64,000 nucleotides of DNA. Origin: a virus. Position numbers and translations under genes: made by a program. The stretch lies in IMG/VR virus record IMGVR_UViG_3300028654_000009; one strand, written 5' to 3'. Below are positions 6,971 through 27,918 of the stretch, piece by piece. The notes beneath the pieces were generated by a model. It had not been told where the DNA came from, did not search any database, and saw nothing but the letters and a program-made list of their open reading frames with translations. Positions within the stretch are counted from its first letter, which is position 1; each line of letters opens with the position of its first letter.

Positions 6971-8289
6971 ACCACCCAGAGCTGGTTGATTGCACTGTCG
7001 GCGGCCGTGAACCCCATAGCCGCCTTCAGTGCGTCCAGGCGCTTTACGCACGCGCGGGGGTCAATCCCGAACCTCGACAGCGACTTATACAGCGCCTCCG
7101 TATCGAGCCCCTTGACCCACGTGGACAGCTCGACCTCAACCTGGTGGTTCACCCGGGGCATCGACTTAAGCTTCGCGTCAGGCGTGAAGTCCTTGAATTC
7201 AGCCGGGGCAAGAGCCCTGAGGTAGTACGGCGTAAACGAGCTTTTGTCGTGCGCCGGGTCGAAATTCTCGCCGGCAAAAGCCGAACCGTGGTCAATCAGC
7301 TTGACGTCGGCGCCCCGAAACATCGTGTTGCCGGCGTTGCTGTCAGCGTTCCCGAGGATGTAATCGACCGCCGCCCACTTATGAAGCGTGCCGTCATGGC
7401 GGTAAATCTGGAGGGCCTTCCTGGCAGCGTTCGGGTCCTGGGTTTTTAGCTTGTTGCCATCGACATAGTCGCCCGACAGCATTTTCTGGACCGCGTATTC
7501 GCGCCCGTCGATCATCAGCAGGTAGCACTCGGGGTAGTAGGCGCCAAGTCCCCAGGAGGCCACCACGTCGTAAAAAGCCGCTTCCCGGCGAGACTGGGTC
7601 GCCGAGGTGTCGCTCTCGCCGGCAGCCGGATTCTGGCGCCCCGACCCAGGCTTGAGCAGGTAGCGCCCGTGGTTTTCTTTGTCGTAAGCCACCAGGGTGC
7701 CCTTCGAGTGCTTCCCGCCGAGCTTGATGGGGGTTATCTCGTCCTCGGACGATGCCTGCGCTACGAGCTTGGCGAACTTGACGCCGCCCTCCGTCATTGC
7801 GGCCACGTCCTTGAATTTGACGGGCTCGGGGTCTTCCGACTTCTTCAGCCCAGAGAGCCGGAGGTAGTCTGCAAGGCCCTGGCGGGTTTCATCGCTGGGC
7901 TCCAGGCCGCAGGCCATGAGCGCAGCGTCCACCGGGTCGTCGTCGCAGTGGACCCTGGCGGCCCGGACCTCATCGGGTGAGGGGGTAACCCCCGAAAGGA
8001 ACGAAGCGGCCCGCAGGCAGTCAGCCAGGTTGGTTTCCTGGCCATGTAGCGCGTCCTCTAGGTTGCGCGGTGGAGTCACCTCGATGTCGCCAGAGGGCTC
8101 GTTCTCGACCCAAGCGGAATAAGCCTGGGCCTGGTCGAGGCCAGGCACCAGGACACTCACAGGCGCGTGCTGGCCGTACTTCCTTGTCAGCCAATGGTAA
8201 GCATGCAGGAGCTGTTCACGGACCTCGTCCTCGTCACCCTCGTAAGCGTGGGTGCAGTCCTGATAGTGCTGCTGGACGATGACTCGCAT
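6967..8289 (-). CDS. Putative head protein with C-terminal PI3/4-kinase-like (HipA/CtkA-like) kinase domain
   Basis: Start re-called to ATG 8289 (TAATG). YLLKPG, RREAAFY, DYILGNADSNAGN and LIDHGSAF motifs; LKKS precedes the kinase. Confidence 0.75.
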   Translation of the reverse strand: MRVIVQQHYQDCTHAYEGDEDEVREQLLHAYHWLTRKYGQHAPVSVLVPGLDQAQAYSAWVENEPSGDIEVTPPRNLEDALHGQETNLADCLRAASFLSGVTPSPDEVRAARVHCDDDPVDAALMACGLEPSDETRQGLADYLRLSGLKKSEDPEPVKFKDVAAMTEGGVKFAKLVAQASSEDEITPIKLGGKHSKGTLVAYDKENHGRYLLKPGSGRQNPAAGESDTSATQSRREAAFYDVVASWGLGAYYPECYLLMIDGREYAVQKMLSGDYVDGNKLKTQDPNAARKALQIYRHDGTLHKWAAVDYILGNADSNAGNTMFRGADVKLIDHGSAFAGENFDPAHDKSSFTPYYLRALAPAEFKDFTPDAKLKSMPRVNHQVEVELSTWVKGLDTEALYKSLSRFGIDPRACVKRLDALKAAMGFTAADSAINQLWVV

Positions 8290-8489
8290 TACTCGACCTC
8301 GACCGCCAGGTCCTGTGCGGTATGGATGCGTCGCAGCACGTCTTGGATGGAGGTGGGGTTGTGGCCGGCATTGCGCGGGTGTGTCATCGCCCAAGGAAAC
8401 TCCAAAAGAAGCTGGGCGACGATCTGCTCGGGCTCCCCCCGGAAGGTTTCGACTTCCTGAGACCAAATATTTGTAATCTTGACCGTCAT
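8289..8489 (-). CDS. Small protein paralogous to the N-terminal domain of the downstream kinase
   Basis: 66 aa, coupled on both sides. GEPEQIVAQLLLEFPW vs GDEDEVREQLLHAYHW. Confidence 0.7.
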   Translation of the reverse strand: MTVKITNIWSQEVETFRGEPEQIVAQLLLEFPWAMTHPRNAGHNPTSIQDVLRRIHTAQDLAVEVE

Positions 8490-11400
8490 TACTCTAACGC
8501 TCCCAGACTTTCGTACTCGGGCTGCTCGCCCTGCTCGCCCAGCGGGTCATACCATTTTTTATCTTTTGGTTTTCGGTACTGGTCAATATCTTGGAATCGC
8601 TTTTCTGCGTCCGCCATGACTTGCTTTTTGTTGAACCGATTTGTCTCAAACCCGGGGATGACCTCCTGGGCCCCCTCATTATAGTGCTCCGGAATCATAT
8701 TAGCATGCTCACGGAACTTGTCAAGCATTGCTCCCTTGTTTTTATCGAACCAATCCCAGGTCCCCTTCCATGCTTCCGGATTTTCTCCAGGCAATCCGCC
8801 CATAACCAAGGCGGCATTGTGAGTCAACAACCTAGAGTGATCCATAACGGGCCTATGTCCGCCATCGAACAGTCCCCCGTGGTCAATAGCCAACGGCAGA
8901 CCGTTAGGCTGGATCATCAGATTGTTGCTGTGGCGATCTGAGTTGCCCGTTAGATAGTCCATAATGGCAATCCGGCGCATGGCTTCACGTGCCTCCGGCC
9001 GATCGGCTACCCGGCCGGGCTCATAACCCGACCCCACATCACTGAAAGCTTGATGTAGCGACTTTACCCCAGGCTCCATATGTACGACCAAAGCGGGATT
9101 ATGGAGCCTCTCTTGAATATTGCCCTTCCCTCCCGGAATATTGAGCTGGGTGGCATGAACCTTTTGGTGAAGGTGCCCGATCCCGCCGGCATGGTACATG
9201 GCCTGATTGGTTAGCTCATTCCAGGCGGACAGGGGGGTTTGCTGGTTGCTGGCCGGCTTGACCATGTAGCGCTTGCCTCCGTGTTGATAAACGGCCTTGG
9301 GTTCGATATCGCCCTTACCGTCAGGCCCTCTCCCTTCCCACACCATGGTGGGCTCGTGCGTGTTGTTACTGTCGTTCAGGTTCTTCTCAAACGTGTTGAC
9401 GTCATTCTGGTGGGCAGCCGGATGGGCCTTCATCAGGCTGTTGTGAATCATCTTGGCTCCCAAGGTGGCATCGAAGCCCTGATGACCAAACACGCCCATC
9501 AGCTGGTCCTTCCCGCCCGCAAGGGCTTTGGACATCATTCCGTCGTCCCCAAGCAAAGGCTCCAGAGCGGCCTTCCATTTGGGGTCCCGTCCACGCCGAT
9601 GCTCTTCCACTCGCTTGTTGAGCCAGTTGATCCGTTTTTGGAAGCCAGCACGAAGGTTGTACTTCGCGCGCGGGTCGGTCACGTTCTCCAGGCGCTTCTC
9701 GAACGCTTCTTGGATAGGCAGCTTGTTTTCGTCGTACCAGGGCAGTACGTGGCGCGCGTCCCAAGAGTTCAAGCCCGGAATCTGATAGTCCCTGTCTTGG
9801 GGGAACGAACCTGGCCTGTTGTGGCCTGCGGCATAAGAAAATGCGCTGCCGTGATCAATCGCCAAAAGGGTCTTATCGGGCCTTACAAGGAGGTTTTCAC
9901 TGTGTCTGTCTTGATTGTCGATCAGGAAATCCATCAGCTGAATTTTGCGGATGTCCGCCTGGTTCGTAGGCAGGTGGTCCCTTTTGAATGAGGTGTTCCC
10001 AATATCCTTAGCCGGCTCCGCTCGGATTACCTGCGCTGGTACCATCCAATCGCCATACCCATGAGGGGCCGTGAAGGTTTCCTGGTGAAGCCTGCCGATA
10101 CCCGCAGCGTGGTACATAGCCTGGTTGGTGTTTTCCGCCCAGCCCGGCATGAACCCGTGTTTGCTGTAGGGCTTGACAATGAACTTCTGAGCCTTTGCGT
10201 AGCCCTTGACCGGCAGCTTATAGATCATCTTGGGATCGCCGCCCCTTGAAAGCTTATCTATTGTCTTGTCGGCATGGTCATAGATGCCCGAAGACCTCTC
10301 CGGCTTGACATGCGCAGCCATCCCTTGCCGATACGCCTCGACCGAATAATGGTGATGGGGCATAGGTTCTTCTGCTGCTGGATTGGAGAGATGGGGAGCC
10401 TTGACCTCTTCTGCGAAGTCGTTGGCGTTATCAATCACGGCCTTCGCCATACGCAGTTTAGGATACTTCGAATGCCCCCTGACTTTCTCGATGTGAGCCG
10501 CTGCCACCTGAATCGGAAGCGAAGGATCGTCCTGGGTGGCCTCTATCATGTGGTGGAGGTGCTCATCTGTCAGGCGAGGGTCCGCCATCAAGTCTTCATG
10601 ACGGTGAAACACAGGGTTTCCCTCGTGGTCGCGAGTGGAGTGTGCCAACACCCTCAATGCCAGGTTAGAAAGCGGGTGATAGAACGCGGTTTTGTAAACG
10701 TTGTGGTCGGGGTCGAGGATCGCGTTGGCTACGTCAGTTGGATCGGTCGAGTCCATCTTGAGAGCCAGCGAGCGTTCAATGGGGTCCGGGTGCTCAAGCA
10801 GGTGTGCAGCTTCAGAGGGCTCGTGTTTCTTGACATAGTCCTTGAGGTCTTTCTTCCCCTTCCAGCTGAACGCGGGTGTCTTGACCCGGTCGTTGATTCT
10901 TCCGTCTAGGGTGGCTTCGTCTTCTGCAAAAGCTTTTTCGTGTTCTTCGGGCGTAGCTAGTTGAGACTTATGCGGTCCCACAATAGTCTCCCAATGTGGG
11001 CTCTGATAGCCAGGCCCAGCAGGTTTGGTGGAATGTGAAAAATCGTTCTCTTTGGCCCATTGTGCGTTGTCTTCGGCGCGTGGGTGGACGGCGCCCCACA
11101 TCGGCAACATTGCGTGGATATCATTCTGGTGAATCCAGGCTGAAGTGATAGGCCCCTTGTACTCTCGCTTGAAATTATGGAGGATGCTGTACAGCTCTCC
11201 CGGAGGGGCGCCCACAATAGGCGTCCAGGAGGTTTTTCTGTCATGCGACACGTGCGCAGGGCCGACGGCGGATTGAGCTTCGGCAGGAGACATCGCCCGG
11301 TGCATAAGGAATGACCTGGTGCCGTCCGGGTGAACCTTGACTTGGGTTTTCCCAGAAAGCTTGTGGAGGCCCCTGACGCGCGCGGGGCCCTCCATTCTGG

Positions 11401-12523
11401 GGATATTCTCCCTGGTTGGGTCTTCCCTGAAACGCCTTTGATAATCCGGGTCAGAAGCGACTTGCCACCTTGCTACGGCCTGCTCGCCTTGGGGAGAAAG
11501 GTCTTGAAAGGGATCGTAGCTGGGGAGGGCTTTGTTTAGGCCAGCGCCGCTATGGGCGATCGCGTAGGGGCTGTCTCTCGGCAACCTCTCCAAATGGGCT
11601 CCCCCATTAGGGACCACGGCCGACACGGACCCTTCGTCTTCCGCTACATTCCGATAATAATAACCGCGCTTGGCGGCCCCTCTTTTTATGGCGCCCGCCA
11701 TATAACCGTTGGCCCTAAAGTCATCGTGGGCCGACATGGGAGTGTTCGACATAGGGCCCACGATCCTGACAGGGAAGATATCTGGCTTGTGGTTTGGCGA
11801 TATAGATGTCCCGTCTCCAAAGGTGGGCATCGCGGTAGCGTAATGATCTTCTGCCATAGGCCCGCTATTGTATCCGGTCCTCTGGACGCCCCTAGCTTGC
11901 AAGGTCTTGTGGCCGGCGAGCAAGGTCTTCCCATATTCTCTTGTGCCGTCCCAGCTGCCCTCTGCCGGAACACCGATTCTTGCATGCAAAGCCTGCTCTG
12001 CAGCCTTCCGGGTCCCGATATGCAGCCCCACTTTGCCGCCAACTAGCTCACCGCTCGGACTCCCATGCCACCACACCTTTTCCCTGTGGCCGTCGTTAGT
12101 GGCTTTGGCCAGGCCTTCGCCCTCTTCAACGCTGAACAACTGGCGCAGGAGGTTAGCCTCACCAGGAGGCCCTTCGAGGTTTTCCCACACGTCCCTGGGA
12201 ATGCCTTTGAGCACCGGAATCCACTTCCAGGCGCCATCCTTGACTTCCTCGTCAGGGTCATGGGTCGAATGGGCGTCACCTGAGCAGAGAGCCGAGAACA
12301 GGTGGATCATTGCGCCGGACGGATTAACTTCAGATTTGATATGCGTCAGTGACTTAGGGCGCAGGCCGGTCTCCTCGTACAGCTCCCTGGCGGCAGCTAC
12401 CGTTTTGTCTTCGCCCTCGTTGAGACCCCCACCTGGCATCGTCCAGGTGCCACGGTCGGAGCGCTTCCCGAGCAAAATCTCGCCTTTCCCGTTGGTGACG
12501 AGTATGAGAGAAACTTGCTTCAT
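8489..12523 (-). CDS. Polyvalent protein: Nudix + ART-like + ART-like + helical repeats + two PI3/4K/HipA-like kinase domains
   Basis: Nudix box GGGLNEGEDKTVAAARELYEETGL. ART-like WHGS...GLHIGT...YRNVAEDEGSVS and HRAMS...TSWT...WETIV. Kinase motifs NQDRHSEN...IDHG and NSDRHSNN...IDHG. Confidence 0.8.
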   Translation of the reverse strand: MKQVSLILVTNGKGEILLGKRSDRGTWTMPGGGLNEGEDKTVAAARELYEETGLRPKSLTHIKSEVNPSGAMIHLFSALCSGDAHSTHDPDEEVKDGAWKWIPVLKGIPRDVWENLEGPPGEANLLRQLFSVEEGEGLAKATNDGHREKVWWHGSPSGELVGGKVGLHIGTRKAAEQALHARIGVPAEGSWDGTREYGKTLLAGHKTLQARGVQRTGYNSGPMAEDHYATAMPTFGDGTSISPNHKPDIFPVRIVGPMSNTPMSAHDDFRANGYMAGAIKRGAAKRGYYYRNVAEDEGSVSAVVPNGGAHLERLPRDSPYAIAHSGAGLNKALPSYDPFQDLSPQGEQAVARWQVASDPDYQRRFREDPTRENIPRMEGPARVRGLHKLSGKTQVKVHPDGTRSFLMHRAMSPAEAQSAVGPAHVSHDRKTSWTPIVGAPPGELYSILHNFKREYKGPITSAWIHQNDIHAMLPMWGAVHPRAEDNAQWAKENDFSHSTKPAGPGYQSPHWETIVGPHKSQLATPEEHEKAFAEDEATLDGRINDRVKTPAFSWKGKKDLKDYVKKHEPSEAAHLLEHPDPIERSLALKMDSTDPTDVANAILDPDHNVYKTAFYHPLSNLALRVLAHSTRDHEGNPVFHRHEDLMADPRLTDEHLHHMIEATQDDPSLPIQVAAAHIEKVRGHSKYPKLRMAKAVIDNANDFAEEVKAPHLSNPAAEEPMPHHHYSVEAYRQGMAAHVKPERSSGIYDHADKTIDKLSRGGDPKMIYKLPVKGYAKAQKFIVKPYSKHGFMPGWAENTNQAMYHAAGIGRLHQETFTAPHGYGDWMVPAQVIRAEPAKDIGNTSFKRDHLPTNQADIRKIQLMDFLIDNQDRHSENLLVRPDKTLLAIDHGSAFSYAAGHNRPGSFPQDRDYQIPGLNSWDARHVLPWYDENKLPIQEAFEKRLENVTDPRAKYNLRAGFQKRINWLNKRVEEHRRGRDPKWKAALEPLLGDDGMMSKALAGGKDQLMGVFGHQGFDATLGAKMIHNSLMKAHPAAHQNDVNTFEKNLNDSNNTHEPTMVWEGRGPDGKGDIEPKAVYQHGGKRYMVKPASNQQTPLSAWNELTNQAMYHAGGIGHLHQKVHATQLNIPGGKGNIQERLHNPALVVHMEPGVKSLHQAFSDVGSGYEPGRVADRPEAREAMRRIAIMDYLTGNSDRHSNNLMIQPNGLPLAIDHGGLFDGGHRPVMDHSRLLTHNAALVMGGLPGENPEAWKGTWDWFDKNKGAMLDKFREHANMIPEHYNEGAQEVIPGFETNRFNKKQVMADAEKRFQDIDQYRKPKDKKWYDPLGEQGEQPEYESLGALE

Positions 12524-13368
12524 TACAAACTTCCGGTGAACATCCCCAAGCCCATCTGGCGCTGGAGTTTCTTGACCAAGAACTTCCGCTTATCCTGAAG
12601 GATCTTCAACCGATCGTTGAACAAATCAGGACCGGGAGTAGACTGACTCTGGGAAAGCCCATCGATGCTCAAGCTCGCCGAGGTGGACCTCGAATACGTG
12701 GTCGCGAGCATGGCTAGGACTTCCATAGCAGTGATGACGCCGATGAGCTGGTTCACCACGCGAGGAACCATCCCGTCCTTGAAGCCGGTCGTATAGATAA
12801 CCTCGAAGAACGAAGCAATCCAGGGGCGATGTCCGAAGATGGCCATAAACTGCGCTCCGTAGGGCCCTGTTCCAATCTGAGCATAGTTGTTCGTCTGCAG
12901 AGCGATCGTCAAAGGGATGAGATTGAGCTGTCCCTGGTGGAGGTAGCCCACGTCGATCCAGTCCAAGGGAATTGAGTAGATCGTCTGCTCGTTCGATGCA
13001 GTGATGGTGACGGCCTGCAGAGACTGAATAGGCCGATGTCTCAATTGCATGAACCCGAGAGACTCATACTCGGGCTTGTCGAAAGCGAGCTTCTCTTTGA
13101 ACTGCTTAGGGAAGATATCGAACCCGCCGTCGATCTCGGCCAGAGCTACAGCCTCAATGATATACTCCTTGAGTTCTTCCGGGCCTATGTACATGGGCTT
13201 ACCAGTACGCGGATCTTTGACTGCTGAGATAAGGGGAATGCCCCACAGGTGAAGGCGGATAACCTTCTCAGGGGTGATCAGCGGCTCGTGCTGGAGCCAT
13301 ACGCCCTCAATTTTGTTGATGTCGAAAATTTCACCGACACCGTCTTTGCTAGTCGTGTAATCGGCCAT
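12523..13368 (-). CDS. Putative head-tail adaptor/neck protein
   Basis: 281 aa. LRHRPIQS...YTTGF...SLSIDGLSQS pattern typical of adaptor proteins downstream of SPO1-like capsids. Confidence 0.6.
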   Translation of the reverse strand: MADYTTSKDGVGEIFDINKIEGVWLQHEPLITPEKVIRLHLWGIPLISAVKDPRTGKPMYIGPEELKEYIIEAVALAEIDGGFDIFPKQFKEKLAFDKPEYESLGFMQLRHRPIQSLQAVTITASNEQTIYSIPLDWIDVGYLHQGQLNLIPLTIALQTNNYAQIGTGPYGAQFMAIFGHRPWIASFFEVIYTTGFKDGMVPRVVNQLIGVITAMEVLAMLATTYSRSTSASLSIDGLSQSQSTPGPDLFNDRLKILQDKRKFLVKKLQRQMGLGMFTGSL

Positions 13369-13880: not shown

Positions 13881-14300
13881 ATGCGTTATGTCTTACCTTT
13901 GCTGGCGATCCTGCTGACGGCCTGCCCTCCCAAGGCACTTCCACAAGACCCCCAAATGGTCCAGGCGGTCCAGATTGCGTGGAGCTATTACAAGCTCCCA
14001 GGGAAGCCCCCTACGTACGTCCTGATGCAGGGCGCGGCCCTTACGTGCAGGAATAGCCCGGGCACAGAAATGGTTGGCTGGGGATGTAAGGGCGTGGTTC
14101 ACCCAGGCTGCACTTGCGTCGCCGGCACGGAAGACGGGGCGAGCTTTGCTATTGCTCGGGTGGATAATCAGCCGTGGCACACGACTGCAATTTGTCACGA
14201 AGCCCAGCACGCTGCTGTGGGCAACTACAACCATACGCAACCAGCCTGGGACAACCTGTTGCTCCCCTGCCAGGCCGCTCAGACTGCCGCCGGGCTCTAG
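13881..14300 (+). CDS. Cys-rich lipoprotein with HExxH motif
   Basis: Signal peptide with lipobox LTAC; CHEAQHAAVGNYNH. Confidence 0.65.
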   Translation: MRYVLPLLAILLTACPPKALPQDPQMVQAVQIAWSYYKLPGKPPTYVLMQGAALTCRNSPGTEMVGWGCKGVVHPGCTCVAGTEDGASFAIARVDNQPWHTTAICHEAQHAAVGNYNHTQPAWDNLLLPCQAAQTAAGL

Positions 14301-14842
14301 TCCTCTTCAGAACTCTTTCGGCTCTCCCAGAATTCTTCGAGTTCTCTGTCCCTTTCGGCCAACGTAGTTCCCAGTAGGTCATCGAGGGCGCCGTCATCAT
14401 AGGTGCCCGTTGCAAGTGCCTTCCCGAAGAATCCACTAACCTCATTTACGAACGCTGTTGGAGACAGCAGCTCCCTTGGGGTGGGCATGGTCCCGGGGCT
14501 GACGTGGTGGAGGCGTTCAAACTTCTCTCCTAGATCAAACCACCACTCAATCTCCTTGCCTAGGTCGATAGCAAGGATGATTTCGAGTTCCATCCCCTCA
14601 CTTATGGCCCCTCCGACGATATAAACAGCAACACGGTCAGAGGTTGCCAAATACGCCTGGGCGGCGATGATTCCTAGCTGTCTGTCCACTTCTTTGGTGT
14701 CGTCTAGAAATTGCGTGTAATACCCGTGTGGAGCAAAGGGCGCTCTCCCCATGCTCAGCTGGTGAGTTGCATACCGATGGCTCTTAAGGATGTTCCCCGA
14801 AACTTCGCCCCGCAGCCTGCTGCAAACGAATACCGTTTCCAT
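14297..14842 (-). CDS. Nucleoside 2-deoxyribosyltransferase-like (DUF4406-like) protein
   Basis: VFVCSRLRG...PFAPH...ISEGMELEI motif pattern. Confidence 0.65.
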   Translation of the reverse strand: METVFVCSRLRGEVSGNILKSHRYATHQLSMGRAPFAPHGYYTQFLDDTKEVDRQLGIIAAQAYLATSDRVAVYIVGGAISEGMELEIILAIDLGKEIEWWFDLGEKFERLHHVSPGTMPTPRELLSPTAFVNEVSGFFGKALATGTYDDGALDDLLGTTLAERDRELEEFWESRKSSEED

Positions 14843-16051: not shown

Positions 16052-17443
16052 TTACAGCTGTCCGCGCAAGTTGTCGATCAGCACGTTCTTGCGGGGCTCC
16101 ACAACCGCCAAAGTCAAGAACCGCAGATGCGCCTCGGGGATGCTGAGGTCCGAGACCGCCAGCTTCACTCGGCTGTAAGGGGCAAGCTCCTTCAGCTCCA
16201 TGGTGTCGCCCTGGATGAGATAGCCCGTCACGAAGCCCGGGAGCTTATTCCCGAGGTCGAGGAAGGTGGTGTTACCCGACACCGCCGAGATAACCCGACC
16301 AACGAACTTGGCCGAGGAGGCCGCGCCGCCAGCGTTCGTGCGGTACACATTGTACCCGCGAACCGTACCAGAACCCGGAGGGGTGATGGTCAGGGTGATC
16401 TTGTCGTTCAGGTTGACCGAGGCCGACGCGATAGAGGCCGAAGCCGGGGACTCGCCGTTCTCGTTGAACGAGGTGACGTAGAAGGTGTAGACGCCAGCCG
16501 CGAGAGCCCCACCGGCGCTGTTGGCAATGCCGAGGGTAGGAGCGGTAGGAGAGTTGGCGCGGGTGCGAGCCGGCTTGCTCTTACCACGAAGGAACTGGCT
16601 GGCCTCGATGTTGACGGTACCACCAGAAACCCACTGCTTGCGGAGGTCGCCACCGGTCGAGTCCTGAGGGGACCCCGCGAGAATTACTCGCTCCTTGCCG
16701 ATAACCAGCTTGTTGTAAGCCGAGAGGACAATCGGGTCAACCAGAAGGCGGTTGGCAGTGCCGAAGTTGAGAGCGCTACGAACCGCCGCGTCCTCAACCT
16801 TGCCCTGGTCCAGGGTGCCGCCGCCCGAGAGAACCACAGAGTCGTCCGAGCCGAACTCTGAGAACATAAGGTCTCGGCTGTTGACCTGCATGTCGCTCTG
16901 ACGAACCTGGAGACCGAGCCCGTGAATGTTCGGGAGGGCCGGGACGGCGAAGGGATTGCCGTCGAACACGCCCGCGTTCGAGAAGTCGTCGATACCACGG
17001 AAGCTGTCGAACTCGATGTCGCCAGCGATCTTCTTGGCAGCGTCAGCAGCGGCGCGCTCGTCGCTCTTCTTGCCGTCAACAGTCGCCACCATCGTCGAAG
17101 CGATGGTCACCCGACGAACGTGGGAGTAGAATGCCATTGGCACCGTAACCCGCACGAAGTCCGAGGTCTCTTCCTGTCCGACCTGGCCTTCGAGCTGGGC
17201 AGACCCGCCGAAGATACCGTAGCTGAGCTGACGGTCGAACTGGTAGAGGGTGGCCTTGCAGGACGAGGTCCCCACGATCTTCTGGAGCTTGATGTGGCTC
17301 TCATCGAAAGTGACGTTGTTCATGACCGGGCTGCAGTCCTCGATTTGAAGGGCAGCACCCTGGGTCAGCGTACTGGGGGCTGCGTCATAGTTGCCAGCCT
17401 CCAACGCCTTCTTAAGTTCAGTAACGGCATCCATTGCGTTCAT
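16052..17443 (-). CDS. Major capsid protein (SPO1/Twort-like, with FN3-like insertion)
   Basis: 463 aa, strong codon bias. Short propeptide ending LKKA, then GAALQIE; FN3-like YTFYVTSFNENGES. Follows the scaffold and precedes a strong terminator. Confidence 0.9.
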   Translation of the reverse strand: MNAMDAVTELKKALEAGNYDAAPSTLTQGAALQIEDCSPVMNNVTFDESHIKLQKIVGTSSCKATLYQFDRQLSYGIFGGSAQLEGQVGQEETSDFVRVTVPMAFYSHVRRVTIASTMVATVDGKKSDERAAADAAKKIAGDIEFDSFRGIDDFSNAGVFDGNPFAVPALPNIHGLGLQVRQSDMQVNSRDLMFSEFGSDDSVVLSGGGTLDQGKVEDAAVRSALNFGTANRLLVDPIVLSAYNKLVIGKERVILAGSPQDSTGGDLRKQWVSGGTVNIEASQFLRGKSKPARTRANSPTAPTLGIANSAGGALAAGVYTFYVTSFNENGESPASASIASASVNLNDKITLTITPPGSGTVRGYNVYRTNAGGAASSAKFVGRVISAVSGNTTFLDLGNKLPGFVTGYLIQGDTMELKELAPYSRVKLAVSDLSIPEAHLRFLTLAVVEPRKNVLIDNLRGQL

Positions 17444-19398: not shown

Positions 19399-20261
19399 GC
19401 GGCCGGCCTCCAGCGCTCGATCCGAAACATCTGGGCACCGTAATGGAGCTTTACGGCTCCGGGCTGGGAACTACCAAAATTGGAAAGCAACTAGGGGTAA
19501 GCTCCAGGGCGGTTCGCTACTTGATGAAACAGAGCGGCATCCCCCTCAGGAGGGATGATTTCGCCAAACTAGTTATCAATGACGGCTTCTTCGACGAAAT
19601 TGACACGCCAGAGAAGGCATATTGGCTGGGCATATTGATTACCGATGGGAATGTGTCTGGGACCCGAATAACGCTGAACCTGAAAGATCGGGAGCATCTG
19701 GTAAAGTTCGCTGAAGCTCTAGGAGGCGGCCAGACACTATCTATCAAAGCAAAACACAAACAAATGGAAGGTCGGGATGTGGTTTGCTTCAACCTCCAGT
19801 TTAGAAGCAAACACATGGCCGGAGCGCTGTCAAAATACGGGGTCGTCCCTCGCAAAAGTGCAACATCATACCCATGGAACGGTCCGGCTGAATTGATGCC
19901 ACACTTTTGGAGAGGGTGTGTGGACGGCGATGGGTGGATTACTGAGATAAAGCCAGGTAGGTTTGCTATTGGTCTGTGTGGAACAAAAGCGATGACACAA
20001 GCGTTCTCAGACTTTTCTTATTCTGTCACTGGGGTTGCTCACAAAATCAAAGCACAGGGCAACATTTTTGTTTGCAGCGTCGGCAGCATAGAGGTGGTCC
20101 GAAAGTTGGCAATTTGCCTGTATGGAAACCTAGATAAGGCTAGTAGCCTTGACAGAAAGCTGGATAAAGCTATTTTGGCGATGGGGGCTTTGGTCCAGCA
20201 ACCCCCGCCTGGGCGCCCGAAGAAGGCAAAGCCCCAGCTGGTGGGGCCCCAGAATCAATAG
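19395..20261 (+). mobile_element. Free-standing LAGLIDADG homing endonuclease
   Basis: N-terminal HTH, YWLGILITDG and FWRGCVDGDG motifs. ATGA coupling at 19395. Confidence 0.85.
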
Positions 20262-23200
20262 GCATAGGTCCTTCATGTCCTGGTACCAAACTGTGGACAA
20301 AATTCGGAGTTTTTTGAGGCGAGTACATTGCTTTCCGTTTTGTCCCCAAAACCTTGTTGAACAGGCTCGGTGCTGCAAACTTTTGCTCCTTTGCCATACC
20401 CAAAGCTTTGTCTGCTGTTTCGAAGTTGTGGCCGAGACCAAACGACATTGACAGCTTGTGCTGGCCATTGACCGGAGGAAGGGCTTCCAACCCGGCCTTT
20501 GCGTGTCGGATAAATTGCGCTGCGTGCTCGTGCGTAGGTGCCCAGAACGACATTTCGTCTCCTCCGCTGCGCCATGCCTTCCCCGTCCCCACCTTAGCCG
20601 CTGCATCACGAAACGCTCCGCCCATAGCCTTGATAGCACTGTCGCCAGCATCGTGACCGTGGATGTCGTTCACCTGCTTGAAGCTGTTCCCGTCAGCGGA
20701 CACCCAAACACCAGGCCGGTTCTCCTCGCGAAATTCCGACGCAGCCCTCTTGTTACCGATGCCCGGTATCATCGGGTCGCCGTAAAATCCATGAACCAGG
20801 GCTCTGGTAATCGGGTGGTCGTGCCCATGAATCTGACGTGCCTGAGCGATAGCCGTACGGTGATCGGGCACCGTAGGCTCGGGGGGCAGGTGTAGGGTCT
20901 CCTCGTCCTTCCTCATTTCGGAAGACATTTTCTTGTATCGCACAGTACCAATTCCGGTCTTGGCATTGTGTAAGATTAGCTGAAGTTCGCCCTCGGTCAA
21001 GGCGTGGCCGTCCATCGCTGCTCCATGCGGCCCAAACTCAATCGTGTGTGGCTTGACCATGCCCGGTCGGTGGAACTCGAACACCGAATTAGGCTTCGGC
21101 ATCGGCATTTTCATGACCGTCAGCTCTGGAACCGGATTGGGCTTCGCGACCTCGGTGGAGGGGGTCGTTTCGGTGACCGAGAAATTGGGACTCCACTTGA
21201 GGCCATGAAGCCCAGCGATAGCCGAAGCGTCCATCTTGCCCTCGGGAACCATTGCATGCAGAAGGCCGTGGTAGTCTTCCAGGTGGTGGACGACATCACG
21301 ACTGACCGAGAACCGGCCCGCCGGGTGAATTTTGTCGCCATGCTTGATGCCTACCGAATAGATAGTCGGCATATCAATTTTGGGCTCAATGGCGTCCGCA
21401 ATATCTTTCCTCAGGTCGATGAGAGCTGCTTCCATCTCCCTGGCCTTGGCCAAGAACTCCATGTTCTGGCCATTCCTCTCTCGATGCTCGGCAGCTTCGA
21501 GGAGCTTGGGGACCAAGTGGTGATAATACAAGAACTGAGCGGGGATCTCTCCGTACTTTTCCACATAGCTTTGGTGAACCAATGCCGTGCGCAAAGACGT
21601 TCCGGAATCGGGCTCGTCACTCTTCTGGACCGGATCAATCCAAGGCTTGATAGAGTCCCAAAATGGTTCATGGTGGGTCCCCGACTGCTTGCCCTTGTTG
21701 GTCATACCCACAAACTGCTCGTGCGGACGAATCGTAATCCAGTGTCGCCAGAAAGCAGGGAACAAGGCGTCCTTGGGGTCCTCGAACGTTGAACCCCACT
21801 TTGGGTGATTAAGAGTGTATTTTACGGCCGGGTGGTTCTTGGCGTACCAGTCGTTATACGGCCTCATTATGGTATCGATGTTGTTGGGGTTCCACAGCAT
21901 GTTCTTCAGGTAAGTGAGGGTCCGCTTATCTTTCATTACGTGCAGACCGAACATGTTGCGGATAAAGTGAGTATCAGGTACAACCGAGTCGCCACCACCC
22001 AACATCCCATAGGTGTAAAGACCAGTTTTGACCGCAAGACCCGGGACAGCGGTAAACGGAGACTCCCCTGGGTCAGGTTTACCCAGCAGTTTAGCTCGCT
22101 CACGCTTGGCCTCCCACAGTTGACCCTTGTGTTTGTTTCCCATTAGCTCGGAAACGGCGTCGAGGGCGTGATGACGGTGTCGGGATACCAGGTCGACGAG
22201 ACCGTGATGCAAAGAATGATAACGAGATAAGTTTTTGAATGACCCTTCCATCAGGGGAGTCGTGCCGGGCAGCTCGCCAGCATACCGACCAGCGGCCGTT
22301 GGGTCGCCTGGGAACTCTCCCCATTCATCGTGGCGAATACCGATACGGTTGCCCACATAATAGGCCGGGTTTGTAGCGAACGCTTCTTTACCGGTCTCGG
22401 GCAGCGTATTCGGAGAGTCCAATTCTCTGAATTTTGGCTCAATCGCCGAGAAGCCCGGATTTCTCGGATCAAGACCGGTGGCGTGCATGGCGTCCACAAG
22501 TCTAGCGTACTGTAGCTCCTGCACCGGGACCGGCCGATTCGGAGACAGCTGGGCAAACATCACGGCATGCATGATGACCTCTGGCGGTAACTTACCGGCC
22601 TTGATCAACTTATGAACCTTGCTCCAGTTGGTCATAGCAGTGTCCATGGCCTTTTCGACTTCTGGAGACTTCAACAATTTCTCATAATTCGCAGCCGATT
22701 CTGGGCCATCATCAGAGGGGAGATAGGCTTTGAAACTTCCCATGGGGGTCCGCAAAACGCCTTTTTTGGGATCAAAAGAGGGGTGTTTGACAGATGGATT
22801 GGGGCGTATTTTGGTTCCTCGGAAGGTGGCAGCCGTAAATTTTGGGGCCTTAGCTTCTTCCTGTTCACTGTCGTCGAAATCCTCAAGGATCGGCTTGTCG
22901 GGTTTCGGGGCCTCCGGGGGCGTCGCAGGCGCGTCGCCCTCTCGCTTAGCCAGAGACTTCTTTACGGTGTACGCCTCCGCGATGTCGGCAAAGTGATTGA
23001 GAAAATCGTCCGACACTTCCGGGAGCTTCGCCTTGGCAAACCCCATGAACTCGCTCCGCGTAAATTTTCGATTACCGAAATCTCGCAAAACAGCCTTGCA
23101 GGTATTCCTGATTCGGTCGTCTACGTGTTCCTTCTGGAGAGCGGCGCCTCCAGTGAGAGAAGATGGAGCCCCTCCACCCATGCCGGCCTCTATCGCCTTG

Positions 23201-23883
23201 CGCACAGTCGAAAGAACCATCGCAGACCGAAGCAAATTGAGAGAAGCCTCGGCCTTGGAATCAATGATTTCGACCTCGGTCTCGTACCCTGATAGTTGGG
23301 CGTACTCGGGGTCGATTATGGACGTGTTTTCAGACTTCTTGAAGCCTTCGGGGGCGTTGGGGTCGGATAGCAGAATGGTGTCGCAAGCTTTGAGACAGGG
23401 TTTGATAGTAATCGCGACTCTGCGGAAGATGCATTGCTTGATAGTGTTACCCTCTTTCTTGAGGGTAGAGCCTTCGATGCTAAACCGACACAGGATCTTC
23501 TCGTCATTGGCCACAGCGTCTCGAATTTGGGCGGCAACGGCCATGGCCTCGGCGTGTCCCGCTCCGTCATACAGACGGACTACCCCAAAAAGGTAGGGCA
23601 CTCTGACCTGGTCCCAGAATTTCTCTTGCTCTGTGGTCTCGCAATCTCCCTTCTTGAAGATTTTTTTAACATAGATGACACGGCCAATGGTTTCCTTACC
23701 AAAGCCAGTTTCGGCGTCAACGTGTTCCCAGTTAACGGTAGCTGTCCCCTCTTCTGCACTAGAAATATCAATACCGTCTAGCTCGACAGTCTCACCGCTG
23801 CTATCAATAAGTTCAGCACTGAAGATGCCTCCCAGCAACATCCCAGTTTTGGATTCTTTCGGCTGGTCTCTTGGATTGCTCAT
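20170..23883 (-). CDS. Prohead protease fused to HhH-GPD DNA glycosylase and GGDEF domain
   Basis: Protease DSSGE...VNWEH...FSIEG. Glycosylase VPGLAVKT...VVPDTHFIR. GGDEF DGNSFKQVNDIHGHDAGD...RSGGDEM. Located between MuF/portal and scaffold/MCP. Confidence 0.85.
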   Translation of the reverse strand: MSNPRDQPKESKTGMLLGGIFSAELIDSSGETVELDGIDISSAEEGTATVNWEHVDAETGFGKETIGRVIYVKKIFKKGDCETTEQEKFWDQVRVPYLFGVVRLYDGAGHAEAMAVAAQIRDAVANDEKILCRFSIEGSTLKKEGNTIKQCIFRRVAITIKPCLKACDTILLSDPNAPEGFKKSENTSIIDPEYAQLSGYETEVEIIDSKAEASLNLLRSAMVLSTVRKAIEAGMGGGAPSSLTGGAALQKEHVDDRIRNTCKAVLRDFGNRKFTRSEFMGFAKAKLPEVSDDFLNHFADIAEAYTVKKSLAKREGDAPATPPEAPKPDKPILEDFDDSEQEEAKAPKFTAATFRGTKIRPNPSVKHPSFDPKKGVLRTPMGSFKAYLPSDDGPESAANYEKLLKSPEVEKAMDTAMTNWSKVHKLIKAGKLPPEVIMHAVMFAQLSPNRPVPVQELQYARLVDAMHATGLDPRNPGFSAIEPKFRELDSPNTLPETGKEAFATNPAYYVGNRIGIRHDEWGEFPGDPTAAGRYAGELPGTTPLMEGSFKNLSRYHSLHHGLVDLVSRHRHHALDAVSELMGNKHKGQLWEAKRERAKLLGKPDPGESPFTAVPGLAVKTGLYTYGMLGGGDSVVPDTHFIRNMFGLHVMKDKRTLTYLKNMLWNPNNIDTIMRPYNDWYAKNHPAVKYTLNHPKWGSTFEDPKDALFPAFWRHWITIRPHEQFVGMTNKGKQSGTHHEPFWDSIKPWIDPVQKSDEPDSGTSLRTALVHQSYVEKYGEIPAQFLYYHHLVPKLLEAAEHRERNGQNMEFLAKAREMEAALIDLRKDIADAIEPKIDMPTIYSVGIKHGDKIHPAGRFSVSRDVVHHLEDYHGLLHAMVPEGKMDASAIAGLHGLKWSPNFSVTETTPSTEVAKPNPVPELTVMKMPMPKPNSVFEFHRPGMVKPHTIEFGPHGAAMDGHALTEGELQLILHNAKTGIGTVRYKKMSSEMRKDEETLHLPPEPTVPDHRTAIAQARQIHGHDHPITRALVHGFYGDPMIPGIGNKRAASEFREENRPGVWVSADGNSFKQVNDIHGHDAGDSAIKAMGGAFRDAAAKVGTGKAWRSGGDEMSFWAPTHEHAAQFIRHAKAGLEALPPVNGQHKLSMSFGLGHNFETADKALGMAKEQKFAAPSLFNKVLGTKRKAMYSPQKTPNFVHSLVPGHEGPMPIDSGAPPAGALPSSGAQAGVAGPKPPSPK

Positions 23884-23910
23884 GATATCCAACCAAGATT
23901 CGGCTGGAGC

Positions 23911-24114
23911 TTAATTCGTCTCGAAACGGACAGCCGAAACGACGCGCTGGATCTGGACGTCTTCGACATCACAAGGAGCCAGGTCGTTCTTCCCGATGAC
24001 ATCCGCCCATTCGTCAAGCTCTTCTGGAGGCGGCGGTCTGAAGTCGTCGGCCACTTGGATCTCGTAAACGGAAGTGGCCATCTCCTGGACTACTACACGG
24101 TAGGTCTTACTCAA
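23911..24114 (-). CDS. Small hypothetical protein
   Basis: Start re-called to TTG 24114 after a GGGGAG RBS. Confidence 0.55.
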   Translation of the reverse strand: MSKTYRVVVQEMATSVYEIQVADDFRPPPPEELDEWADVIGKNDLAPCDVEDVQIQRVVSAVRFETN

Positions 24115-24886
24115 CGTCTCCCCCTTCTCTTTGTTGTTTGTATTCGTCGTGGTCCTTGGACTTGAAAGTGACGAAACCGTTGCTATTAAAACCAAATCCG
24201 GGCATGAGGATGGTCATGCTGCACCTACAATTTGGGTGCAGGACGGTACAGGGATGATCGTCGCCCCGCTTCCAGTAGCCTGAGCCCACCTCGGACAGTT
24301 TCCACACCCTGGGGGTAGTCTGGTCCGGCAAAAGGAACAAGCTCGTGCAGTCTTCGCACCGAGACTTGTCCCTGACCGTCACCCAAAACACTGTCGGGTC
24401 TTGCTGGCTGGTAGCCGCAGCGATTTTTGAGATTCCGTCAAGAGTGCCCATATTCCGAGCGCGGGTGGACTCTGTATCGACGATTCGGCGCACGTCCGAC
24501 GTGACTTTACCCATGACCTCGCCAAGCTCGTCACCCAGAACCTGGTGAAAATTGGCGCTTTCGCCTTTGGCCTCAGCATCATGAAGGGTGGCCTGGACCG
24601 TGTGTACGATTTTGGCCTTCGCCAGCTCACGGTGAGCGTCGAGGTATTGTTCGGCGACGGATTTCAGGCTGTCCCGAAGCTTCTCCGAGGGAGTAAACCC
24701 TTCGCTCCTGGTGGCGTTGTCAAACAGCCCTGGGAGGCTCAGGGTGTCGTTGTGAAGCTTGACACCCACACGGATAGTCTTGTCCTTGCCTGGACCCAGG
24801 AAACGCTGTTTAGCCCTCTGGAATAGGCCGTCGATCGCCGCGTGAATGGCGTTGATGGCCTTCTTCGTGAGGATGAACCGAGGCAC
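24107..24886 (-). CDS. MuF / SPP1 gp7-like minor head morphogenesis protein
   Basis: RIVDTE...RCEDC...LHPNCRC signature. Confidence 0.85.
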   Translation of the reverse strand: MPRFILTKKAINAIHAAIDGLFQRAKQRFLGPGKDKTIRVGVKLHNDTLSLPGLFDNATRSEGFTPSEKLRDSLKSVAEQYLDAHRELAKAKIVHTVQATLHDAEAKGESANFHQVLGDELGEVMGKVTSDVRRIVDTESTRARNMGTLDGISKIAAATSQQDPTVFWVTVRDKSRCEDCTSLFLLPDQTTPRVWKLSEVGSGYWKRGDDHPCTVLHPNCRCSMTILMPGFGFNSNGFVTFKSKDHDEYKQQREGGDVE

Positions 24887-25794: not shown

Positions 25795-27918
25795 TTATTT
25801 CTTCTTGAAGTGCGCGGCCACGTCGAGAATCTCTTTTACGGCCGCCTTCGAGTCTTCCTCCCACCCGTCCATAAAGTGCTCGACAGTCTTGTTGTGTTGT
25901 GCTAAGAGCCGCCGCTTGTCCGGCGGGAGCTGCATCTCGTGCTTGCTCAGGGCGTCAAAGGCGATATCGATCGAGCGAGCCAGGTCCGAGGCTCCTGAAC
26001 CAGTCGCCCCTTGCCCCGAGGCGTCTGGGCTGGCCGCCGACTGCTGTTTCTGGGTGGGCTCTGGAGTGTTCTGGCCGCCGGCTGAAGGTCCCTGTGACGG
26101 GTCTCCCCCGCCTCCTGGCTGCCCTCCTGGGGCCCCTCCACCGCCGCCCCCATCCTGTGGGGGCCCGCCACCCTGGGCCTGCTGCTGCTGGGCCATCTGG
26201 GCCTGTTGCTGCGCTTGCTGTTGCTGGACCCACTGGAACCAGAATGGGTCTCTCACGTAGGCCAGATTGGGGTCCTTGCTGGCCCCCTCACGGCCGCAGA
26301 AGTGCTCCAGAATTTGGCCGACGGTGAAATACTGGTCGAGGTAGGTCTTGAACACCGGATTAAGCGGGATTGTGCCGCCCCATGCCTTGCCAACCGGCGG
26401 CTTCTCGACTCGCTCCGAGATGTCGTCATAGTTCATCCAGATCGACATGTCCTGCTGGGTCCGGACGGCTTCTTTCTCGGCGTTGTCGGATTCGAGACCG
26501 ACGAGCCTTACCGAGGCCTTCTTGGACAACTTAGGGTCGATGAGGGGGAACAGGTGCTGGTTGATGAAGTCTTCGAAATTCTTCAGCAGCGGCCGGATAC
26601 CGACATCCCGGGCCGCCGTCATTTTGTACTCGTTGTTGCTCTCCGACAGGGCCTGATTGTTGGTGCCCTTAGACAGATATGACCATCCAGGTAGTTCGTC
26701 TGGAGACATCATGAATGCAGTTAGGATTTCCCGAGCATTCAAATCGCACAGGTACTGAAACTCCATATCCTTCCCCCCGCCCGTATCGATAGGCTTCCAA
26801 TCAATACTTTCATCGACGCCACAACCAAACACTGGCATGCGCCACGAGTTATTGACGCTGTTGATGCTAGCGTTGAACTGTTGCTTGATATTGTGGATGA
26901 CCTGTGGGTTAGCATCCTCGGACGAAATCACCAGCATGCCGCGAGCGGCGCGGCCTGATTGAAAGTAGAGCTTGTTGTGTTGGGTCAGATTAATGTGCGT
27001 GGTCACCGCACTGATGATCGTGTCGATAGGCGTGACGGGATACCCGTCTAGCTCGACGTCTGGAACTGGGTAGCAGTTGTAGACCGACATCTCCTCGGCC
27101 GTGAACGCCTGCTTAGGAGTTCCTTCTACCACCTGTACATAGCAATAGTCGCCGGCCTCGTACTTCTCTTTCTCCAGCTTTTTGCCGGTGATTCTGCAAA
27201 GAAGGTGGTACGCGTCTTGGCGAACGGACTCTAGGCTATCCTGGTTGGAAGGAGCTGCGTCATAAATCGTTCCCGCATCGACGGCGACGAAGTGGTGGAA
27301 CTTTTTCTTGCCCGGAGAGTCCGGGTCATCGATCCAGACTTTTTCACAGGCGATTCGTCCGACGACCAAAGCGTTTCGGGCCTGGAGGGCCAGGAACTCG
27401 GAGAAAGTAGTAACCATATCTAGGCCCGTCGTTTCGCCACACAGGTTGAGTTTCTTGACGGCCCGGTCGATCTGGACATTGAATTCCTTTTTCTCCTCGG
27501 GCGACATCTTGTCCAGCTCGCCTGTATTCGCCTTGATGACGAACCCCGTAGAGAAACGGTCTTCACGGGGGCGCCCGAACGAACTGAGGTGGTTCTGGCG
27601 AGCCCTTACAATGTTTGAAACCAACGAGTCCTGGATTGCAATGCGCTTGAGCATTGCGTCCGGGATGAGTCGCATCTTGGCGCGGTAAACGCCACTGTAA
27701 GTATTATTGAGAGTCGGGTCGGTTTCGAACGATAGCCTTTCTACGCTATCATTACCCTGCCCGTTAAGGACGTTGAGGATCGATTTGGTGAGACTTGGCT
27801 TGTCCTCCCCTGTGCGAACGTACACCATTGACTTGGCCAGGTTCGCAGAAAGTTGCTCCTCGTTGAGCCCCAGTCCGTAAGTCAGGTTGGAGGTGGATTT
27901 TGGGGTTCGCCTTTTCAT
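25795..27918 (-). CDS. Portal protein
   Basis: 707 aa. YPVTPID...YFQSG...DMEFQ...MSPDEL...GIRPLL pattern; two genes downstream of the terminase; Q/G/P-rich tail. Confidence 0.9.
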   Translation of the reverse strand: MKRRTPKSTSNLTYGLGLNEEQLSANLAKSMVYVRTGEDKPSLTKSILNVLNGQGNDSVERLSFETDPTLNNTYSGVYRAKMRLIPDAMLKRIAIQDSLVSNIVRARQNHLSSFGRPREDRFSTGFVIKANTGELDKMSPEEKKEFNVQIDRAVKKLNLCGETTGLDMVTTFSEFLALQARNALVVGRIACEKVWIDDPDSPGKKKFHHFVAVDAGTIYDAAPSNQDSLESVRQDAYHLLCRITGKKLEKEKYEAGDYCYVQVVEGTPKQAFTAEEMSVYNCYPVPDVELDGYPVTPIDTIISAVTTHINLTQHNKLYFQSGRAARGMLVISSEDANPQVIHNIKQQFNASINSVNNSWRMPVFGCGVDESIDWKPIDTGGGKDMEFQYLCDLNAREILTAFMMSPDELPGWSYLSKGTNNQALSESNNEYKMTAARDVGIRPLLKNFEDFINQHLFPLIDPKLSKKASVRLVGLESDNAEKEAVRTQQDMSIWMNYDDISERVEKPPVGKAWGGTIPLNPVFKTYLDQYFTVGQILEHFCGREGASKDPNLAYVRDPFWFQWVQQQQAQQQAQMAQQQQAQGGGPPQDGGGGGGAPGGQPGGGGDPSQGPSAGGQNTPEPTQKQQSAASPDASGQGATGSGASDLARSIDIAFDALSKHEMQLPPDKRRLLAQHNKTVEHFMDGWEEDSKAAVKEILDVAAHFKKK

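Follow-up and report, generated by a model that had tools for sequence, protein, structure and literature searches.

Why would a phage keep a nucleotide cyclase domain of the GGDEF family among the genes that build its head, and in which cell would such an enzyme act? The question is raised by a 64,000-nucleotide stretch of DNA (the window), part of the 132-kb IMG/VR virus record IMGVR_UViG_3300028654_000009, which is ~80% complete. An earlier note, made from the letters alone, had placed a phage GGDEF domain at positions 20380-20780 and predicted an unregulated synthase of cyclic di-GMP (c-di-GMP). That the gene belongs to a phage is borne out by the virus record and by its sole cultured relative, Myxococcus phage Mx1. 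The positions correspond to residues 1038-1171 of a 1240-residue open reading frame (ORF) on the minus strand, a detail missing from the note, and every string quoted there is found in this ORF: SADGNSFK at residues 1065-1072, VNDIHGHDAGD at 1074-1084, VGTGKAWRS at 1101-1109, and RSGGDEM at 1108-1114.

Judged from structural models, the ORF encodes a polyprotein that runs from a T4 gp21-like prohead protease through a mimic of the capsid N-terminal arm, a module resembling HhH-GPD DNA glycosylases, and a beta-rich domain to the GGDEF domain at its end (Table 1). The identity and fold of the GGDEF domain, the conservation of its active site, the absence of an inhibitory I-site, its fixed position in the head module, and the enrichment of a short motif in the linkers around it are established computationally. 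The reading toward which we lean, on balance, is that the domain is packaged in the head, released by the head protease, ejected into the next cell, and able to make c-di-GMP free of feedback.

The GGDEF domain and its active site

The assignment to the GGDEF family is confirmed by profile, by sequence, and by model. Pfam GGDEF (PF00990) matches residues 1053-1157 with 36.4 bits against a gathering cut-off of 23.8, and the NCBIfam matches are to diguanylate cyclase models only, TIGR00254 scoring 27.6, under its cut-off of 37.4. Searches of PDB sequences with phmmer lead to solved diguanylate cyclases, namely, GcbC (5euh, E = 8e-8), PA0575, WspR, DosC, and SadC. An AlphaFold2 (AF2) model of residues 810-1240, built on 141 relatives, reached a mean predicted local distance difference test score (pLDDT) of 89.6 and resolved a helix, the beta-rich domain, a disordered linker, and the GGDEF domain in that order. 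The last of these superposes on SiaD with a Z score of 17.7 (root mean square deviation [rmsd] of 2.3 over 155 residues), on WspR with 17.2, and on PleD with 16.2, and the superpositions overall have rmsd values of 2.3-3.3 over 144-159 residues. In Foldseek comparisons with the PDB, diguanylate cyclases make up all of the top matches.

Within this family the phage form stands apart. A search with residues 1000-1240 among 1.8 billion cluster representatives returned 88 clusters at E values of 1e-30 or less, 269 at 1e-10 or less, and only 2265 at 1e-3 or less, which argues for a distinct phage clade, far from ordinary cellular GGDEF proteins; the identity of the clade to solved cyclases is ~25%. 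With the canonical enzymes PleD, WspR, SiaD, GcbC, and DgcB the phage form shares the fold (Z of 16-18), the metal-binding Asp, the guanine-reading Asn and Asp, R-x-GGDE, and a C-terminal pair of Lys residues. Unlike them, it is without the RxxD motif and without REC, PAS, GAF, or transmembrane input, has a beta-rich domain, a C-terminal extension, and a Lys after the conserved Asn, and is encoded in a head module, fused to a prohead protease. The extension follows the GGDEF core at residues ~1188-1210 (20263-20330, minus strand), is packed against the domain with high model confidence, and keeps P1196, H1200, S1201, G1205, E1207, and G1208 at 90% or more in 141 sequences. Clade-specific His and Glu residues (H1117, E1122, H1123, H1145, and H1200) might form a candidate metal site.

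Active-site conservation was scored in an alignment of 198 clade members. The metal-binding Asp, D1067 (the counterpart of PleD D327), is kept in 98% and the guanine-reading Asn, N1075 (PleD N335), in 99%, and the guanine-reading Asp, D1084 (PleD D344), is found in 90%, with Asn in 8%. The signature Arg (R1108) is present in 94% and the signature G1110-G-D-E1113 in 94-100% (D1112 in 100% and E1113 in 96%), the present protein reading GGDEM and the clade consensus GGDEF. Counterparts of the phosphate-binding residues of PleD (K332, K442, and R446) are K1072 (71%), K1168 (99%), and K1171 (92%), the last being a Lys one residue nearer than the canonical Arg. Nearer the N terminus, D-x-x-x-x-G-x-G-N-K is conserved as the counterpart of D-x-L-T-G-L-x-N-R.

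Two statements of the earlier note about regulation and substrate are borne out. The I-site, an RxxD motif placed five residues before GG[DE]EF in feedback-inhibited cyclases, is indeed absent: R-P-A-D of GcbC aligns to K1100-V-G-T-G1104, and RxxD is missing clade-wide, with a consensus of V/G/T/G at positions 1101-1104. Likewise, D1084 is the Asp of the GHxxGD position, rather than the Ser or Thr of Hypr enzymes, which places the protein in the type specific for guanosine triphosphate (GTP). Asp there is the canonical GTP-specific state, Ser in the Hypr enzyme GacA (S348) admits adenosine triphosphate (ATP), and exchanging that Ser for Asp turns GacA into a pure diguanylate cyclase (PMC6456294). 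Going by these residues, the domain is very probably a working nucleotide cyclase, and its product is probably c-di-GMP. Because all catalytic and guanine-specific residues are kept and RxxD is absent, synthesis would proceed without product feedback.

The head-protease polyprotein and its candidate cut sites

Pfam, PHROGs, and NCBIfam detect the GGDEF part of the polyprotein and nothing else, and the N-terminal 1000 residues match none of the PDB sequences, whether the query was one sequence or a profile, so recognition of the protease and glycosylase-like modules needed structure comparison. In an AF2 model of residues 1-830 (pLDDT of 84), residues 19-176 match T4 gp21 (5jbl; VIA Z of 10.0, 123 residues, rmsd of 2.8) and the varicella-zoster virus (VZV) protease (Z of 8.9), and the top 17 Foldseek matches are herpesvirus assemblins (probability values of 0.91-0.99). 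Across 85 sequences His57 and Ser138 never vary, and His113 is conserved at 90% or more. With fold, His/Ser residues, and gene position in agreement, the modeled segment is assigned as a prohead maturation protease of the T4 gp21/assemblin fold. Residues 222-258, disordered in the model, closely resemble the N-terminal ~38 residues of the major capsid protein (MCP; 17330-17443, minus strand), the VRKA of the polyprotein aligning with the LKKA of the MCP, and tblastn with the MCP also matches the protease gene or polyprotein in two related loci (L019 and L020). This copy of the capsid arm may serve as a docking arm or a decoy. The middle module superposes at residues ~390-741 on the T. maritima 8-oxoguanine (8-oxoG) glycosylase Tm1821 (3n0u; VIA Z of 14.0, 207/209 residues, rmsd of 3.2), followed by OGG1, Mag1, EndoIII, and MutY, and carries the signature P-G-L-A-V-K-T ... 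V-P-D-T-H-F-I-R. Several relatives have this module broken at query positions ~452-463 by insertions of 330-650 residues, and the insertion in one of them (P0054) matches a Pfam intein, which suggests that the insertion point is a functionally important site.

The beta-rich domain accounts for the part of the earlier note that was only half right. The claim that there is no sensor domain stands insofar as no REC, PAS, GAF, or transmembrane input domain is present, but a conserved beta-rich domain accompanies the GGDEF domain in every fused or stand-alone relative. It spans ~150 residues, is modeled with pLDDT values of 84-97 except across the loop at residues 910-929 (~71-74), and is present in all 141 aligned relatives, ~36 stand-alone proteins included, as an obligatory partner of the GGDEF domain. 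Its role may be that of a targeting propeptide, a dimerizer, or a regulator; no fold match for it emerged when the combined beta-GGDEF model was compared by Foldseek and VIA, GGDEF hits filling both lists. The helix upstream of it is a boundary: shorter protease proteins stop just before this junction, and stand-alone GGDEF proteins start there, ~12 residues past the conserved L-R-K. Model confidence falls below a pLDDT of 50 at residues 806-814, in the junction, and again in the linker at residues 992-1006.

Both of these segments are enriched in a motif that also marks the head proteins. The strict motif tested was [LMVI]-x-K-[AS]. In the MCP of the window it lies at residues 10-13 (LKKA), and this position has L-x-K-A in every one of 23 related loci. 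The putative scaffold, a protein rich in Pro, Gly, Ala, and Glu, has nine copies, all of the form [LM]-x-K-[AS], against 1.07 expected, a count that 0 of 2000 shuffles reached, and in 23 relatives the scaffold has a motif density of 6.8-30 per 1000 residues. No excess of the motif was seen in the terminase and other nonhead proteins. We infer from the MCP and scaffold that [LMVI]-x-K-[AS] is the cut site of the head protease, and the pattern in the scaffold would fit digestion of this protein to small peptides.

In the beta-GGDEF module, motif density per 1000 residues is 32 in the junction and 22 in the linker between the beta-rich and GGDEF domains, as against 0.5 in the beta-rich domain and 1.0 in the GGDEF domain, a 20- to 60-fold enrichment in the linkers on either side of the beta-rich domain. 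The junction has the strict motif in 86 of 105 relatives. The linker follows the logo [DE]-L-x-K-[ASD]-[ED], with the strict motif in 97 of 141 proteins and a loose form in 124 of 141; among the stand-alone proteins, 25 of 36 have the motif. The present protein has LAKA and LRKD in the junction and only MRKD in the linker, so that release of a 47-kDa beta-GGDEF fragment is better supported than release of a bare GGDEF domain.

Position tells a similar story. On the minus strand, the genes run in the order large terminase, a 325-residue protein, portal, MuF-like protein, the polyprotein gene, a 156-residue protein, the 318-residue putative scaffold, and MCP. A search with a 20-sequence core alignment recovered the related loci, and homologues of comparable length number 146, on contigs of up to ~180 kb. 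Without exception in Mx1, in ~26 IMG/VR loci, and in several metagenome contigs, the beta-GGDEF module has the protease gene on one side and the scaffold and MCP genes on the other, and in more than 30 related loci it is either fused to the protease gene or just downstream of it, between the portal and capsid genes. Three architectures occur: the protease with the middle and C-terminal modules, as here; the protease with the C-terminal module; and the protease with the middle module, with or without a PI3/PI4-kinase-like domain. In a FastTree phylogeny of 85 protease and middle-module sequences, the fusion state switches two to three times. Wherever the module is not fused and the locus could be tested (5 of 5 loci, plus Mx1), a separate beta-GGDEF gene lies downstream, no more than one gene from the protease gene, which makes the module a core head-module gene rather than an exchangeable accessory. 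Its deep conservation among the head genes, together with the intact active site, makes it probable that the module matters to these phages and is more than a passenger.

Many relatives (P0047, P0055, P0039, P0048, P0104, P0111, P0112, and L087 at 7001-10585) have a PI3/PI4-kinase-like domain, some also DUF6321, after the middle module. We considered whether this domain replaces GGDEF as cargo and rejected the idea, because phages with a kinase-ended or short protease protein keep the downstream beta-GGDEF gene. The kinase-bearing relatives thus retain a separate GGDEF gene, and the kinase-like domain is extra cargo.

Mx1 (OR576727.2; 169.6 kb, 55.5% GC) shares the portal-to-capsid gene order, with 36.6% identity over 93% of the query. 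What is one ORF in the window is split there into a "putative prohead protease" (WNM70322, 1239 residues), a hypothetical protein (WNM70323, 150 residues), and a "nucleotide cyclase" (WNM70324, 243 residues). The Mx1 genome announcement is silent on the protease and cyclase genes (PMC10720576).

Proposed packaging and delivery, and rival explanations

In the mechanism that we propose, the 1240-residue protein would be made late and would enter the procapsid by means of its protease domain and its mimic of the capsid N-terminal arm. The protease would cut the MCP, the scaffold, and its own polyprotein at sites of the [LMVI]-x-K-[AS] type, and a beta-GGDEF piece of ~47 kDa or a GGDEF piece of ~27 kDa would be retained in the head. 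At the next infection the piece would be ejected with the DNA, refold, and make c-di-GMP from GTP without product feedback, so disturbing behavior that the host controls through c-di-GMP. Packaging and cleavage are proposed because of the fixed place in the head module, the fusion to the protease, and the motif enrichment in the linkers, and on these sequence features we consider it likely that the polyprotein is in the procapsid and is cut there; they also lend indirect support to the injection assumed in the earlier note. Ejection, dimerization, the c-di-GMP product, and the host effect are what we infer beyond that, and delivery of an active cyclase into the next host is put forward tentatively, as a prospect a little short of even. 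The broadest form of the proposal is slightly more tentative again: as a group, large soil phages resembling Mx1 (no fewer than ~270 protein clusters at 50% identity) may keep a feedback-free cyclase as a cleavable core head precursor with the beta-rich domain as its targeting propeptide, store it in the capsid, and fire it in with the DNA, so that host c-di-GMP would be set before any phage gene is expressed.

Several points weigh against this proposal. GGDEF enzymes work as dimers, and isolated GGDEF domains generally need a partner (cf. the WspR constructs 3i5b and 3i5c); no dimerizing element was recognized in the protein sequence. The linker motif in the present protein is MRKD, with Asp at P1', and not the strict form. 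One relative (L089, 9745-10761) encodes a 338-residue beta-GGDEF protein in which GGDEF, FK, and GH have become GGDGF, FW, and GW, and nevertheless retains the head-module position and an L-G-K-S-E linker motif; this degenerate member suggests that the module also has a role independent of catalysis. The gene is late and structural, and hence the enzyme could act in the cell that produces it. Lys stands in 83% of the clade where the canonical N-R-R has its first Arg, and if that position is the cross-dimer Arg described in PMC6456294, the product preference could differ. The effects on motility, pili, and nucleotide-based immunity proposed in the earlier note are speculation; its words "constitutive" and "first minutes of infection" likewise overstate the case.

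The alternative that survives best is one of timing. Here the polyprotein, or the separate module, would make c-di-GMP in the cytoplasm of the producing cell during assembly, its GGDEF domains perhaps joined by oligomerization of the protease, and cleavage or packaging would end the activity or dispose of the enzyme. The gene does lie within a late structural operon, many relatives encode the module separately, with no physical link to the protease, and the polyprotein state could supply the dimer partner that an isolated domain needs. However, a cytoplasmic enzyme would have no evident reason to keep protease-type motifs in both disordered linkers, stand-alone forms included, as a head-protease substrate would; the fixed place between protease and scaffold is also kept in relatives down to ~31% identity. 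We regard action in the producing cell as unlikely.

The second alternative concerns the product. [quoted passage not shown] The low identity of the clade to solved cyclases leaves room for this, as do the Lys for Arg after the conserved Asn and the occasional Asn for Asp at the position that reads the Watson-Crick edge of guanine; GGDEF enzymes of altered specificity exist (PMC6456294), and interference with host nucleotide signals has been proposed (PMC5512222). Set against these are the near-invariance of Asn1075, the prevalence of Asp1084, and the behavior of the GacA Ser-to-Asp enzyme (PMC6456294). PADLOC models, those of defense-system cyclases among them, matched neither the C-terminal nor the middle module. 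A different product is somewhat less probable still than late action.

Least probable is a mainly structural or regulatory internal head protein, part of a core or inner body or a timer of protease activation that binds GTP or c-di-GMP, with catalysis secondary or vestigial: the near-universal presence of the module as a core head gene and the L089 protein, which lacks the catalytic Glu and other signature residues and keeps position and linker motif, speak for it, but 90-100% conservation at catalytic and substrate-binding positions over deep divergence is the pattern of selection on activity, and degenerate members are a small minority, Glu1113 being kept in nearly all.

Relation to known systems and neighboring genes

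The proposed arrangement combines known kinds, a GGDEF cyclase and a head cargo processed by a protease. In T4 and in SPN3US/phiKZ, proteins bound for the prohead carry N-terminal propeptides of 20-254 residues that direct them there and that the head protease takes off; ejection into the cell is documented for many of the internal head proteins (PMC10052503). The T4 Alt and internal proteins (IPs), processed by gp21, and the substrates of SPN3US/phiKZ gp245 have in common with the present system a protease of the head-protease fold, a short motif on MCP, scaffold, and cargo, and an N-terminal segment of 100-250 residues before the cargo. In contrast, the cut site deduced here is Lys-based (L-x-K, then A or S) and theirs is Glu-based, and the cargo here is a predicted second-messenger synthase.

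GGDEF domains have been noticed in phages before. [quoted passage not shown] Those proteins and the present one are multienzyme proteins encoded beside packaging genes, with predicted delivery along with the DNA; here, however, the N-terminal protease is the phage's own maturation protease, and the GGDEF module is a clade-wide core gene with a candidate cleavable linker motif. The stand-alone GGDEF proteins of Bordetella phages FP1, CN1, CN2, and MW2 and of related Pseudomonas siphophages differ more. They are ~30% identical over 75% of the domain, have ~156 residues, lie in the early or replication region, at a distance from the head genes, are annotated as "diguanylate-cyclase GGDEF domain protein," and have neither the beta-rich domain nor a link to a protease. 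One example, a bare GGDEF protein of 156 residues in a group of ~60-kb siphophages (KY000220.1 [L086], 8953-9423), represents a different and apparently unstudied deployment. A small number of other phage GGDEF proteins are listed in BFVD.

Degradation and sequestration of host signaling nucleotides are known phage strategies, and one case is known in which a phage peptide switches on a host cyclase. In that case, as PMC8085984 is cited in PMC11461919, phage YIP peptides activate the host cyclase YfiN. Raising host c-di-GMP would be common to both systems, YIP being small peptides that act on a host enzyme and the protein described here a predicted phage-borne synthase. In the literature searched, we found no experimental study of a phage-encoded or virion-borne diguanylate cyclase and no paper on this family of head-module GGDEF proteins. 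If the proposal is true, the module would be the first virion-delivered second-messenger synthase, raising a second messenger within seconds of DNA entry and independently of transcription. In Myxococcus xanthus, type IV pili, exopolysaccharide, and development are under c-di-GMP control. The Mx1/Myxococcus xanthus system is cultivable and offers one opening, a candidate Lys-specific code for head-protease cut sites is a second, and a natural, input-free cyclase scaffold is a third. Should one of the rival explanations hold, the proteins would still form a well-defined new phage GGDEF clade, of more modest interest.

Table 1. Features of the polyprotein ORF and of the surrounding head genes (positions in the window; aa, amino acid residues)
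Feature	Position	Strand	Basis or remark
Whole ORF, prohead-protease polyprotein ending in GGDEF domain	20170-23892	minus	1240 aa; TTG start, first ATG 23883
Prohead (capsid maturation) protease domain, aa 19-176, as modeled	23365-23838	minus	AF2 model, VIA, Foldseek, invariant residues
Copy of MCP N-terminal arm, aa 222-258	23119-23229	minus	Direct comparison with MCP
Helical middle module, HhH-GPD DNA-glycosylase-like fold, aa 355-806	21475-22830	minus	VIA structure comparison
Junction helix, aa 811-835	21388-21462	minus	Carries LAKA (21442-21453) and LRKD (21403-21414)
Beta-rich domain, aa 843-986, two beta3-alpha units	20935-21366	minus	AF2 model, alignment of 141 relatives
Disordered beta-GGDEF linker, aa 992-1006	20875-20919	minus	Contains MRKD (20905-20916)
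GGDEF domain, aa 1010-1210	20263-20865	minus	Pfam, PDB-sequence matches, AF2 model, alignments
Pro/Gly/Ala low-complexity tail, aa 1211-1240	20173-20262	minus	Low confidence in AF2 model
Major capsid protein	16052-17443	minus	PHROG 752, E = 1e-45; LKKA at aa 10-13
Putative scaffold, 318 aa	17486-18442	minus	9 copies of [LMVI]-x-K-[AS]
MuF-like minor head protein	24107-24886	minus	PHROG match
Portal	25795-27918	minus	PHROG match

Among other genes, no EAL phosphodiesterase was found in the 132-kb record, a weak negative in view of its incompleteness. Close to the head module, a 1344-residue ORF (8489-12523, minus strand) has several [LM]-x-K-A motifs. Between the capsid gene and a tail-fiber-like gene (12523-13368) lies a 181-residue ORF (14297-14842, minus strand) that matches the PHROG for nucleoside 2-deoxyribosyltransferase (E = 2e-10). 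On the contig of one kinase-bearing relative (P0104), the portal gene contains an intein with a LAGLIDADG endonuclease, and the adjoining gene also has a LAGLIDADG match; the head-module genes of Mx1-like phages seem prone to intein invasion.

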